Virus record (IMG/VR): IMGVR_UViG_2711768052_000007 | Location: 1-9,795 of that record | Length of the DNA stretch: 9,795 nucleotides | Direction: 5' to 3' (one strand) | DNA from: a virus | Lineage: Duplodnaviria > Heunggongvirae > Uroviricota > Caudoviricetes | In this document: piece by piece, positions 1-9,795 of the stretch | How positions within the stretch are numbered: the first letter of the stretch is position 1 | How the letters are laid out: every line of letters begins with the position of its first letter | Translations under genes and position numbers: made by a program | The notes under the pieces: model-generated | Seen by the model: the letters and a program-made list of their open reading frames with translations, nothing else | Told to the model about the DNA's origin: nothing | Databases searched by the model: none

Positions 1-564
1 TCAACGACTGCGCTTAGCGTGGCGCTCCCAGTTTTCTTGCTTCGCCTGCGCCGTTTTACGTAGTGCGACGTAACACGCCCCGCTGCCGCCATGATGCGGT
101 AGCGCAGTGCAATATGCCTGAACATCATCAAATTCGGTCAGCCAGCGCGCCACATAGCTGCGGACAATATTGGCATGCGATTTATCATCCCGTCCTTTGC
201 CATGAATAATCAGCACGTTACGCAAACCATCAGCCATGGCTTGTTGAATGAAACTGAACATCATTTTGCGGCACTCTTCCACCGGCTGGCGCAAAAGATT
301 CAGGCTCGCCTGTTGCGGATATTTACCACTGCGCAGCTTATCCAGCACCCCATGTTGCAACCCTTCCCGCCGAAACTCCAGCGGCTGACTTAGTGGGATG
401 ATGTCGAGAAATCCGGTGGTGAGGAAATTATCAAGCTGCAGCGTGTCGATACGCTGCGGCGCACGTTGGTTACGCGTTGGATGCCAGTGGACATCGGTAG
501 CACGTTTCAGCGGCTGGACATCTTCCATGGCGTCAAGAAACAGCGATTTGTCGTCAAGGTTCAT
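1..564 (-). CDS. smrA: Smr-domain protein SmrA (YdaL), probable DNA endonuclease
   Basis: Complete 187-aa ORF (ATG at 564-562, stop at 3-1). The translation matches E. coli SmrA/YdaL as I recall it, including length. SD-like GGAGGATG lies upstream at about 568-575. Confidence 0.85.
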   Translation of the reverse strand: MNLDDKSLFLDAMEDVQPLKRATDVHWHPTRNQRAPQRIDTLQLDNFLTTGFLDIIPLSQPLEFRREGLQHGVLDKLRSGKYPQQASLNLLRQPVEECRKMMFSFIQQAMADGLRNVLIIHGKGRDDKSHANIVRSYVARWLTEFDDVQAYCTALPHHGGSGACYVALRKTAQAKQENWERHAKRSR

Positions 565-1297
565 GTTACATCCTCCCGCAATTAAGAGCGCGATATGATA
601 ACCAGACCGGGTCGGTCCAACAACGTATTACCCAAAATTCCAGTAATAAGTTCCAAATATTGCCGATATTTTAAGCAAAATGCTTATGCATGATTATTCA
701 TTCACGATATTTATAATTAAATGCGCATAACTTATTGAATTTAACCAACAAACATCGCTGCAAATAACGTTAAAAATCGCAAATTAACTACACCATTAAC
801 TACACCGTTCGGTGCACTGTATGCAACAATGCGGAACAAATAGACACAAGCGACGGGCTATACCGTTATCATTTTCCGGCTATCCGCCATGAAGCTGGTG
901 GATGATCACGGATAAACCGTTATGGAAGTCCCCATATCGGCATCATGCCCACCAGCGAGATTAGTTATCTGGTTGCTGATGGGAGGCTGACGAACCTCGA
1001 TGCTAGGGTGCGCAAAACTAGTGAGACCTTTTTTCTCTGCAACAGGCCCATAATTCGCGTTTTCTTTGTCTGCCGTAAGGTGGGGGATTTTTGGCGGATC
1101 CAGCAATGGCGCGGATTTTGTGATTTTTTATAGATAGACCTCATCTATCAATCCCGTGCACACCTTCCCAAAAAAAGTTTTCGAACCTGCGGCGATGAGA
1201 ACAAGGGTAGGCGGGCGGTCCCATAAGCAATGGAGTGTAGGGATTCCGATCCCCCTGGGGGTATTAAACGCCCCACCCTATTTAAATACCGTCTTTT

Positions 1298-5379: not shown

Positions 5380-5573
5380 CTCCCCACTTTTACTACCCAC
5401 TTTTTGAAATTACCCAACGTCTCCCCACTTCTTTTTTTTGTGATTCTAACGTGATGTTTTTCAATGTATTTTTTATTCCCCACTTTTTGGGGTATATACA
5501 GGTGGGAAAGTGGGGAATCGCGTTTCAATTTTGTTAAATTCCCCATACTCCCCACTTTTACTACCCACTTTTT
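5380..5573. repeat. Iteron-type origin of replication candidate
   Basis: An identical 26-bp direct repeat CTCCCCACTTTTACTACCCACTTTTT occurs at 5380-5405 and 5548-5573. The short motif TCCCCACTT occurs at 5381, 5422, 5477 and 5549, with an inverted copy AAGTGGGGA at 5508-5516. An AT-rich spacer lies at 5431-5476. The region is immediately 3' of the Rep-type gene. Confidence 0.6.
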
Positions 5574-7498: not shown

Positions 7499-7957
7499 GG
7501 CTTACATCCTCCGTGAATTTTCTTCTGTACCGTGCCTCTGCCACATATTCAGCATAGTCCGACGCAATAATAAGAATATCGTTGCCGGTTCCTGAATGTT
7601 CAGCGGTTCCAATTAAAAAACATGCGGCCTTTATCAGGTCATTAACAGCCAGCAACGCATCGCCTGTATCATCCGGTGCGCCATCAAATTCCTGTTTCAG
7701 GGCATTAAAACGATCATCACGCATAACCCCCCCCCATTTTCACAATCAGCAATCAGGATGGCTTTGGCCTCATTCAGTGCCATATCAGCGGTAAGCTGTG
7801 CGTAGGCCAGCGAATGGGGGATTATTGCCCCTGTATACTCCGGCTCTCTGGTAATGTGTTTTTCTGCGGTTGCTGCCGTGCATGAAATATCAATCAGCGC
7901 GTGCATCAGCGTAGTGAGCGCGGCGGCTGCTGCGTCCGGACGTGGGTTATTGCACAT
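7491..7957 (-). pseudogene. Hypothetical protein split into two ORFs at a G9 homopolymer (frameshifted or phase-variable)
   Basis: ATG at 7957-7955 has a strong RBS (AGGAGGT, 5-nt spacer). The frame runs to a stop at 7699-7697 just after the G9 tract (plus-strand C9 at 7727-7735). The 77-aa ORF 7491..7724 continues in the +1 frame, and one extra G would fuse both into about 157 aa. Confidence 0.4.
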
Positions 7958-8249
7958 GGCGCACCTCCTGACGAATACGGGCGGCGAATACAGCGACACA
8001 ACCGGACGGGCAACGGTTACGCGCTTCGCGTTCTGTCCATGCGGTGACGTGGATGATTTGAGATTCTCCGGCACTCAGTGCCAGAAAACGCCACACAAAG
8101 GCCGTTTGTGTGTGCGCTAGGCGTGGGGTATGCTGTGTTCCAGCCATAATCGTTACCTCGTTTAACGGTTTGGTTAGAAGCCCCGTTACTGCTCCAACAG
8201 TGCGGGGCTTCGTCGTTTCAATTGCTGAATTGCATGTATCAGCCCTTGT

Positions 8250-8316
8250 GGTATTCAGATTACATTTTGGTGAATACCATTTCAAGTCTTTTTTGGTATT
8301 CACTTTTGTATTACAC
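8250..8316. promoter_or_regulatory. Operator-like repeats GGTATTCA(C) upstream of the ribbon-helix-helix gene
   Basis: GGTATTCA at 8250-8257; a perfect 9-bp inverted pair GTGAATACC (8270-8278) and GGTATTCAC (8295-8303); a degenerate copy GTATTACAC at 8308-8316. A candidate -10 TATTAAT lies at 8327-8333. Confidence 0.35.
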
Positions 8317-8346
8317 TGCATCCCGTTATTAATCGGAGGTGCAAAC

Positions 8347-8652
8347 ATGTCCACGAGTTCTGTTAACAATAAGTCACAGCAACTGAATGCCAGATTTCCA
8401 CATGAAGTAGTGAGTGGCATTGAGGCATCCCTACAGCCAGGGGAAACTAAAGCGAATTTTATAGTTACGGCTGTACGCGGTGAGATCGCCCGCCGCCAGG
8501 CAGAAGGAAGCGGAGAAAATCCCCTGGTTTCTTCGCTCGATGCACTGGCGCAGGTGGAAAAAATCGGAGTCAAAGCAGCCGAGGAGATCGGGCAACTCGT
8601 CACCGTCGCGCGTGAAGAACTCCAGCGCCGCAAGGCCAAAGAGCAGGAATAG
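8347..8652 (+). CDS. Ribbon-helix-helix (Arc/CopG-like) DNA-binding protein, putative island regulator
   Basis: 101 aa with a strong RBS (GGAGGTG, 5-nt spacer). The N-terminus (QQLNARFPHEVVSGIEASL...ANFIVTAVRGEIARR) fits the beta-strand plus two-helix RHH pattern. It is the only convincing plus-strand gene in the island. Confidence 0.55.
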   Translation: MSTSSVNNKSQQLNARFPHEVVSGIEASLQPGETKANFIVTAVRGEIARRQAEGSGENPLVSSLDALAQVEKIGVKAAEEIGQLVTVAREELQRRKAKEQE

Positions 8653-8656
8653 CCCC

Positions 8657-8675
8657 ACCGGAATTTTTTTCCGGT
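8657..8675. terminator. Hairpin between convergent genes (possible bidirectional terminator)
   Basis: ACCGGAA-TTTTT-TTCCGGT lies 5 bp after the RHH stop and abuts an out-of-frame minus-strand TAA. There is no long U-tract on either side. Confidence 0.3.
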
Positions 8676-9143
8676 TACGCTTTGCCCACCAGCCGCAAAT
8701 GTGGCATTGTTGGTGATGCGTTCAAGTTTGATTTGCCGTAATACCCACTGGCGACCCTTTGCGGTCGCCTTTGTTTTGCCTGTTATCCGGCAATTGTGGC
8801 GCTTCGCCACACGGTTGATATAATCCCACTGCTCAGATTCATTTTTTGCGCAGTAGGTTAATTGTTCGCAAGGGCGCTCCGGCAACGGGGCGCTTTTTGT
8901 TTTTATTAGTTTGTAGAAAACTGACTCAGAGATAATGCTCATATTCTGATTGCCGTCAGGGGGGTAAGTTAAATTTACTCCCTTTTCATCAAGCATCTGC
9001 AACGCTCTGGCGTTAATAATATTGGTTTCACTCCCGCCAATAAGGCCGGAAATAACCGGAATAATTTCAGCGAAATTTTGCAGATTCTGGTTTTCAGGCC
9101 GAACGAAGCCCCGCCCCTGTACAGGCGTATATCCAGTATTCAT
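8675..9143 (-). CDS. Hypothetical protein with a weak Bro-N/Ant-like motif; C-terminal frame unresolved
   Basis: ATG at 9143. The first 150 residues or so look protein-like, and ISESVFYKLIKTKSAP resembles the SESGLYxLIxRSRKPEA motif of Bro-N/Ant-type proteins. The in-frame ORF has no stop until 7947 and runs antisense through the RHH gene; a TAA in the +1 frame at 8677-8675 is the likely true end. Confidence 0.4.
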
Positions 9144-9195
9144 GGTTAAATCTCTGTATTAGTGGATGGGTGGCGGCTGTGTGCCGCCAGCCTGA

Positions 9196-9384
9196 TTAGT
9201 GAACTGCCTCGCGGCTGTCCTTCCATGCCAGAACTTCGGATAAAGACCAGCCAACGGAACGACCACCGAGTTTACGCCGTGATGGGAATTGTCCAGTCTT
9301 CTCCAGGCGATACCGACATGAGCGGCTCAGGCCTGTAAGTTGCTGACATTCTTTTTCACGTATAAAGCGATCTGTGCTTAACAC
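9196..9384 (-). CDS. alpA: AlpA-family (Xis-like HTH) transcriptional regulator
   Basis: The C-terminal 62 aa (VLSTDRFIREKECQQLTGLSRSCRYRLEKTGQFPSRRKLGGRSVGWSLSEVLAWKDSRE) matches the AlpA pattern. A GTG start at 9384-9382 is preceded by AAGGGGGA. The track ORF's upstream 36 codons are low-complexity and lack an RBS. Confidence 0.7.
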   Translation of the reverse strand: MLSTDRFIREKECQQLTGLSRSCRYRLEKTGQFPSRRKLGGRSVGWSLSEVLAWKDSREAVH

Positions 9385-9680
9385 AATTCCCCCTTTGTTG
9401 TTTCTTAAAGAGTCATTGGGTGGATTATTGGGTTGGGTTGTGTCGGATTGTGTCAGGGTGTTTATGGAATGGCAAACACTGGTGGCGGTCATTTTACAGA
9501 AGTGGGGGTAGTGAGAATAAAAATCCTTTTAATTCATTATGATGTAAAGGCATAAAATTCTGTTTTTACGCCTTTTTTACATGTTTTTAAGAGTGATTCG
9601 CCAATGTACAAAAAGCCAGTAAAACGACTGAAAATCAACTTTTTAGGGTGTCAGTCAGATGATAATCAAGTTTGTTCCAG

Positions 9681-9730
9681 ATTGTTCGCCGTTGTTCGTC
9701 GTGGTGTCTCGTTGTTTCACGTTGTGTCCG
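9681..9730. repeat. Five degenerate direct repeats phased every 10 bp (candidate recombination or regulatory protein binding array)
   Basis: attgttcgcc / gttgttcgtc / gtggtgtctc / gttgtttcac / gttgtgtccg, in non-coding DNA about 300 bp to the right of alpA. All three minus-strand frames hit stops within 60 nt of the window end, so no integrase 3' end is present. Confidence 0.35.
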
Positions 9731-9795
9731 TTCTAAAAAATCGCAAAAAAAATTATATTTCTCTGGCTATTGGCAGTGTGGTTACGTTTTCGTGA

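Follow-up and report, generated by a model that had tools for sequence, protein, structure and literature searches.

Island, attachment site and gene layout

The DNA analyzed here, i.e., the window, is a stretch of 9,795 nucleotides that begins with the core gene smrA (bases 1-564, minus strand). When aligned with E. coli K-12, in which the site is empty, the left junction was found to end at 717, and the window from 718 rightwards is a mobile island inserted between smrA and mcaS/abgR. The attachment site is intergenic and involves no tRNA gene. Its 16-bp att core is present as a single copy (TCACGATATTAATAAT) in the K-12 empty site, and both island junctions map onto that copy. The left core (TCACGATATTTATAAT, 702-717) forms the left end of the island; the right core is located outside the window, 175 bp beyond the int start codon (ATG). 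The 16-bp direct repeat bounding the island (TCACGATATT[T/A]ATAAT) was found at 702-717 of the window and at 14574-14589 of the related sequence L002, and occurs once in K-12, in the smrA-mcaS interval. In several human isolates, a close relative of the island, which has the same int-alpA spacer and matches 70% of the window at 92% identity, lies inside an IS110-family (ISEc45-like) transposase gene (L003, 2775-3023 and 13834-14754); the integrase thus also inserts at a secondary site.

The island genes, all of which are on the minus strand but for one small plus-strand gene, comprise those for a small terminase subunit, head decoration, major capsid, SSB, a RepA-type helicase, DUF4222 and Icd-like proteins, as well as alpA and int. 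Judged by this gene content, the element is a PICI-type phage satellite, with a layout matching that of Gram-negative phage-inducible chromosomal islands (PICIs). Two prototypes, EcCICFT073 and EcCIEDL933, reportedly have int and alpA genes identical to each other (10.1101/2022.09.08.507074); the window island belongs to the lineage for which int and alpA identical to those of the prototypes have been reported (10.1101/2022.09.08.507074). The same int-alpA module is also carried by O157:H7, and genome L001 is 100% identical to the window over 9150-9795. Islands L001, L002, L132 and L133 have identical or near-identical int-alpA modules, yet their replication modules are unrelated (RepA helicase, primase family, DUF927) and their packaging modules differ, a comparison that shows shuffling of modules while the integration zone stays fixed. 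A 13-bp tandem repeat (TACTACCCACTTT x2, 5546-5572), which is AT-rich and directly downstream of the RepA-type helicase gene, is likely the replication origin of the island. A 398-codon ORF at 7947-9143 (minus strand) had no Pfam match and is unannotated in 97%-identical relatives, whose annotation instead has a YlcI/YnfO-family gene at 8347-8652 on the other strand; further relatives encode an AntA/AntB antirepressor in this part of the island.

At the right edge of the window is the 3' end of a tyrosine integrase gene (int), annotated as a CDS in the identical genome L001. Its last 13 codons and TAA stop occupy 9753-9795 on the minus strand, with the stop codon at 9753-9755 and the remaining gene to the right of the window. 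By alignment, the minus-strand translation of 9753-9794, HENVTTLPIAREI*, corresponds to the C-terminus of the L001 integrase. An earlier reading of this DNA from its letters (the original prediction) had held that no integrase 3' end fits in the window, which is incorrect, but had rightly expected an integrase gene to the right; the extension that it proposed was run and located both int and the right att core. Pfam analysis of the full integrase identified PF13356, an N-terminal arm-binding domain (residues 8-95), and PF00589.

The alpA gene (9196-9384, minus strand, GTG start at 9384) encodes a 62-aa winged-helix protein that is annotated in relatives and matches Pfam PF05930 (E = 2.7e-18). 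An AlphaFold model of AlpA (pLDDT 86.9) had excisionases as its best PDB matches, i.e., 8c3t (GIsul2 excisionase; TM 0.83-0.90), RdfS, TorI and Pukovnik Xis. BldC, a head-to-tail binder of direct repeats, also matched the model. The antitermination model of Pseudomonas AlpA was set aside, since that protein is much longer and its N-terminal ring is absent from the 62-aa AlpA (PMC9371919).

The spacer between int and alpA (9385-9752) is 368 bp long and non-coding, in agreement with the predicted gap of roughly 400 bp to the right of alpA. A 63-aa ORF at 9604-9795 (plus strand) was rejected as a gene: it has no Pfam match, carries 9-, 10- and 11-bp indels among relatives, and runs antisense across the int 3' end. 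An Rfam scan of the whole window gave no match in 9385-9795. A search of the minus strand of the spacer for an int terminator found none, and the sole plus-strand match, located within the repeat array described below, was at chance level.

Phased repeat arrays in the int-alpA spacer and on the att arms

A distal array of six 10-bp units (9670-9729, minus strand) starts 24 bp beyond the int stop, on its 3' side; each unit has a TTGT core on the plus strand, equivalent to ACAA in the int/alpA sense. The units start at 9670 (GTTTGTTCCA), 9680 (GATTGTTCGC), 9690 (CGTTGTTCGT), 9700 (CGTGGTGTCT), 9710 (CGTTGTTTCA) and 9720 (CGTTGTGTCC), and the core, at constant position, is TTGT in all but one, which has TGGT. 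The predicted 10-bp-phased array is thus real and exact in phase, with six units rather than the five first counted. Tandem Repeats Finder (TRF) assigned a period of 10 to 9682-9702 and to 9690-9732. Two matches to TTGT-N6-TTGT-N6-TTGT are present in the window (9672-9695, plus strand; 826-849, minus strand), compared with 0.01 expected from dinucleotide-preserving shuffles; when the window was extended with the identical genome, a search for phased TTGT chains yielded three arrays versus 0.02 expected. In a phased scan with a position-weight matrix (PWM), the distal array scored 36.1, the highest value of the island; shuffled sequence reached at most 22.3, with a 95th percentile of 17.3.

The same unit recurs in three other settings. 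On the left att arm, three units in 10-bp phase (GCAACAA, GGAACAA and GACACAA; 822-851, plus strand; PWM 28.3) form an array that is inverted with respect to the distal array, and arrays of this left-arm type are kept at the far ends of two other islands. On the right arm, the stretch from the right att core to the int ATG contains four units (PWM 33.0), located ~55-95 bp upstream of that start codon, with a weaker triple (PWM 19.9) nearer the core; the arrays upstream and downstream of int are mutually inverted. Finally, a proximal array is situated 50-80 bp upstream of the alpA start (9436-9465, minus strand), in which two strong units (GACACAA) are joined, in 10-bp phase, by one or two weaker ones. 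For this region, TRF reported a period of 10 at 9427-9454 and the phased PWM score was 16.7, near the shuffle 95th percentile of 17.3; relatives keep the array, which in the O157-type group is shifted in register by one unit. A whole-island phased PWM scan found the phased TTGT/ACAA unit only in the distal array, the proximal array and both att arms, all of which are non-coding, and no other island site scored >9.

Beside the left-arm array, TRF detected a doubled 12-mer (ATTAACTACACC x2, 783-806, plus strand), and ATTAACTACACC is doubled a second time beyond the window edge, 23-46 bp upstream of the int ATG. The original prediction had described the left-edge array as different in sequence from the distal array. 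This is true of the doubled 12-mer, but not of the adjoining units at 822-851, which have the same motif in inverted orientation.

Conservation was assessed across 53 distinct spacers, taken from genomes of E. coli and from viral contigs and representing at least four integration sites. Within a set of seven islands at four sites (abgR, roxA, yifB/ilvL and tqsA), the spacers were 70-100% identical, and the 10-bp phase of TTGT was kept while the intervening bases varied. All 53 spacers contained the distal array, with 4-8 units each; the ACAA core was 98-100% fixed and its flanks were degenerate, giving the unit consensus WGVAACAAYG in the int/alpA sense (CRTTGTTNC on the opposite sense). One relative had gained exactly one 10-bp unit. 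Fixed cores, variable spacers and whole-unit indels are the mark of selection on what appear to be phased protein-binding sites, not of selection on a coding sequence. The checks proposed at the outset, on coding and on conservation in related islands, were therefore passed: the region is non-coding and the repeats are kept.

Between the distal array and the int stop codon are two in-phase A-tracts (TAAAAAATCGCAAAAAAAA, 9734-9752), which probably constitute a static bend or a nucleoid-protein site. An element T7-8-N4-T5-6 beside the int stop was kept in all 53 relatives with varying central bases, and related copies are present on both att arms, between core and repeat module. On this alignment, what is conserved is a pair of in-phase A-tracts rather than the exact motif TAAAAATCGCAAA. 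The latter occurs at 771-783 and, with one mismatch, at 9735-9747, so the short motif noted as shared with the left edge does recur, at slightly shifted coordinates, against 0.04 occurrences expected by chance. By eye, the IHF consensus WATCAANNNNTTR was approached only by the int-proximal-arm copy of the A-tract motif.

A consensus scan identified a candidate alpA promoter at 9447-9475 (minus strand), with a -35 box TTGCCA (9475-9470), a 17-bp spacer and a -10 hexamer CACAAT (9452-9447). This -10 hexamer is itself a repeat unit, and the proximal units overlap the -10/start region, so that their occupant is predicted to limit the promoter. The arrangement TTGCCA-17-(C/A)ACAAT, 50-62 bp upstream of the alpA start, was present in 48/53 distinct relatives; these include the ones with a register-shifting 10-bp deletion, in which the neighbouring repeat unit provides the -10 hexamer. 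Conserved TGATTTT and TACAYT boxes immediately downstream of the distal array were considered as another sigma-70 promoter and discarded, since the 21-22 bp between them is too wide for a -35/-10 pair.

The spacer also contains, between its two arrays, a conserved hairpin (9542-9582) that folds as RNA in the int/alpA sense (minus strand) with -14 kcal/mol and z = -3.9, compared with z = -1.3 in the plus sense; one stem position is A-T, G-C or G.U across relatives. There is no U-tract after it in the int/alpA sense and there are T-runs after it on the plus strand, where it could stop transcripts antisense to alpA. In other Enterobacterales, distant AlpA genes (55-69% identical; L013-L026 and L118-L130) have an extra gene between int and alpA and a terminator-like hairpin (GCCCTCG...CGAGGGC then T5) directly before the alpA start codon, at ~40 bp. 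This layout suggests possible control of these distant alpA genes by attenuation or read-through.

Candidate binding proteins for the arrays

The doubled 12-mers and the phased units behave differently across islands. Those at yifB and tqsA have a variant block in Int residues 9-42, within the arm-binding domain, and their 12-mers are AATGACTACACC, AGTGACTACACC or AGTAACTACACC in place of ATTAACTACACC, with the same replacement at the int-proximal arm and at the far arm, ~10 kb away. The change, TTAAC to rTGAC or GTrAC, tracks Int residues 9-42 (window 783-806; L001 5856-5879; L132 6750-6773; L133 7077-7100). By contrast, the ACAA arrays are unchanged in these islands, and AlpA is also identical in the yifB island. 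A further 18 loci showed these same two Int/12-mer haplotypes with no exceptions. Since the 12-mers co-vary with the Int arm-binding domain and the ACAA arrays do not, we assign the 12-mers, as probable integrase arm-type sites, to Int, which leaves the ACAA units for another protein. Two haplotypes underlie this co-variation, which may go back to one evolutionary event, and in the excised circle the two arms lie side by side.

This pattern bears on the possibility that the units are extra Int arm-type sites, through which Int, bound at its own stop codon and at the alpA promoter, silences alpA and so acts as the missing repressor of Gram-negative PICIs. Tandem 10-bp-phased arm sites are found in lambda (P'1-P'3). 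The units also lie on both att arms, <200 bp from the core, the proximal units cover the candidate -10 hexamer, and the PICI repressor has been reported as not known (PMC6092414). However, one arm domain normally reads one motif, and it is the 12-mers, not the ACAA units, that change with the arm-binding domain at both arms; the annotated arm repeats of P4 are doubled 12-mers of the same kind. Moreover, the distal array is separated from the nearer att core by ~1.4 kb (the 1.23-kb int gene and 175 bp between), far beyond ~200 bp, and is on the far side of int. We therefore consider Int an unlikely reader of the units. The same distance bears on the proposal that the region is the alpA control region, an att arm, or both: the spacer is conserved upstream of alpA and its unit is common to both att arms, but the distal array itself as an att arm is not supported.

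Replication iterons, like the primase-bound ori/crr repeats of P4, are a scarcely credible identity for the units. The P4 iterons TGTTCACC resemble TTGTTC, and two separated arrays are reminiscent of ori and crr; yet the same spacer accompanies three unrelated replication types (RepA-type helicase, primase-family protein and DUF927 protein), the arrays flank int rather than a replication gene, and there is a separate AT-rich repeat at 5546-5572 downstream of the helicase gene. The TTGT arrays co-vary neither with the Int arm-binding domain nor with the replication genes.

A host protein is also very unlikely to be the reader, whether a winged-helix response regulator that binds 10-11-bp direct repeats or a nucleoid protein attracted by A-tracts. 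OmpR/PhoB-type regulators typically read direct repeats at ~10-11-bp spacing, and A-tracts flank the array; in a Shewanella prophage, H-NS silences alpA (PMC8034616). The motif, however, is limited to the att arms and int-alpA spacer of this island lineage, and EcCIMP1, another E. coli PICI, is without it and has its own motif at equivalent positions. EcCIMP1 has a different AlpA, an Int that is only 26% identical, and no ACAA arrays (best PWM 10.2). Its own 9-mer, ACTTTAGTA, is present in three copies in 21.5 kb, two in the int-proximal arm and one 27-35 bp 3' of the int stop (L131 19250, 20573 and 20636), a placement that mirrors the window array. The binder is therefore island-specific and the position conserved. 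That a motif occupies the same spot in a second PICI lineage suggests that the position itself matters.

Another candidate reader is a helper-phage protein that switches on alpA, with the distal array as its landing site, like P2 Cox on P4. P4 has TTAAAG x3 in 10-bp phase upstream of vis, and P2 Cox activates the P4 late promoter via three 10-bp-phased cox boxes at that position. In addition, EcCIMP1 alpA reporters spanning the spacer respond to the helper even without AlpA (PMC11773190), and the inducer is reported as not known (PMC6092414, PMC10803314). Units on both att arms, on the other hand, would be superfluous for an activator working at the promoter only; island helpers are diverse and the unit is fixed; and the array PWM had no score on lambda Xis sites X1-X2 or anywhere meaningful in P4. 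A helper protein as the reader thus has a small chance of being correct. We hold it similarly improbable that the distal array is a dedicated element for helper switch-on, at which a helper protein docks as P2 Cox does on P4, or at which AlpA or Int on the two inverted arrays loops out int and couples excision to alpA firing. The units (CRTTGTTNC) do not match the TTAAAG-type P4 box read by P2 Cox. Lambda Xis as the reader was rejected: its site X1 shares GTTGTGT with some units, but the array PWM gave no score on X1-X2.

We favor a different reading, i.e., that the arrays are operators for AlpA, which would act in excision at the att arms and in alpA self-regulation in the spacer, in the manner of Apl, Cox and Vis; we put its probability at roughly 0.55. 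Excisionase-type recombination directionality factors (RDFs) characteristically bind direct repeats one helical turn apart in a cooperative manner, bending the DNA, and Apl and Cox act at both att and a promoter (PMC7498355). In EcCICFT073 and EcCIMP1, excision requires AlpA, and the protein also activates its own promoter (PMC6092414, PMC11773190). AlpA must accordingly bind both at att and upstream of alpA, and the units are found at these very places. The region from -449 to +50 in EcCIMP1, equivalent to the spacer, has helper-dependent and AlpA-dependent promoter activity (PMC11773190). Two hallmarks of an excisionase operator, phased direct repeats and a winged-helix excisionase-type gene on the same element, were both found. 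A third, location on an att arm beside Int arm sites, is seen for the arrays at 822-851 and upstream of int, but not for the distal array.

According to this AlpA reading, each 10-bp unit would be bound by one AlpA monomer contacting the ACAA/TTGT core, and monomers would line up head to tail on the same face of the helix, binding cooperatively and bending the DNA, with the adjoining in-phase A-tracts increasing the bend. AlpA filaments on the att-arm arrays, beside the 12-mers read by Int, would direct excision. Those on the distal and proximal spacer arrays would control transcription of alpA itself, the distal array possibly being positive for alpA and the proximal array self-limiting. We infer the identity of AlpA as the binder, its cooperative binding and DNA bending, and the division of activating and limiting roles between the arrays.

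Several observations argue against AlpA as the reader of the arrays. AlpA and Int are co-inherited in all relatives found: scans with AlpA of one genome per species and of viral contigs recovered either the same lineage, in which the two are always linked, or distant AlpA genes in another layout, and a protein word search with AlpA gave 19 matches, all close relatives. Some 230-290 bp separate the distal array from the candidate promoter downstream of it, a long distance for simple direct activation. Overlap of the -10 hexamer by the proximal units predicts repression, whereas the published net effect of AlpA on alpA reporters in related islands is activation (PMC6092414, PMC11773190). Furthermore, an EcCICFT073 Pint reporter was unaffected by AlpA (PMC6092414), despite the four units ~55-95 bp upstream of the int ATG.

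In the literature searched, we found no paper mapping AlpA DNA sites in these islands. New here are candidate sites for the PICI master regulator, set apart by sequence from the presumptive Int arm sites, and an array directly 3' of int that is inverted relative to the 5' array and whose position is kept in a second PICI lineage. AlpA-type arrays beside att and a promoter are not surprising in principle, but are useful as a test of alpA control. AlpA is the master switch of Gram-negative phage-inducible islands, and exact candidate operators, together with a promoter-like site that has a unit as its -10, make alpA control and satellite switch-on directly testable by point mutations and footprints.

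Comparison with known excision and control systems

Small DNA-bending proteins acting on phased repeats are well described in 186 (Apl) and P2 (Cox), where they bind 5-7 direct repeats one helical turn apart, cooperatively and in a filament-like manner (PMC7498355, PMC3936717). Apl and Cox act beside the att core as well as at a promoter region; the island has candidate sites beside its att cores and over a promoter-like site. Unlike the island arrays, the Apl/Cox operators lie between face-to-face lytic and lysogenic promoters; in the island, one array abuts the int stop, a second overlaps the candidate promoter of alpA and units are present on both att arms, an arrangement known from sequence.

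P4 provides a further parallel, in that its Vis protein is 46% identical to the island AlpA. As in the island, doubled 12-bp arm repeats are annotated on both sides of the P4 attP core and next to the int start; beside these arm repeats are 10-bp-spaced GGACAAC-like units followed by AAAAAATCGC, and there are 10-bp-phased boxes upstream of vis. P4 differs in that int and vis are ~5 kb apart and the boxes upstream of vis serve the Cox protein of the helper. The unit PWM had no score in P4, and the integrases are only 21% identical.

In KplE1, the winged-helix excisionase TorI, which was among the fold matches of AlpA, binds short GTTCG-type repeats arranged in blocks, which overlap the int promoter and adjoin the arm sites of Int (PMC2951348). 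TorI sites are in attL only, unlike the island units, and KplE1 is not known to have an array 3' of its integrase gene.

Helper-embedded PICIs, described by the Williams laboratory, have a doubled motif at fixed distances on both attP arms, with either the Int arm domain or AlpA as its binder (PMC10111431). This motif corresponds to the doubled 12-mer of the island, not to the TTGT arrays, and had been reported as unique to helper-embedded islands (PMC10111431). On every feature that can be read from sequence, the island arrays match Apl/Cox, P4 attP/Vis and TorI/IntS.
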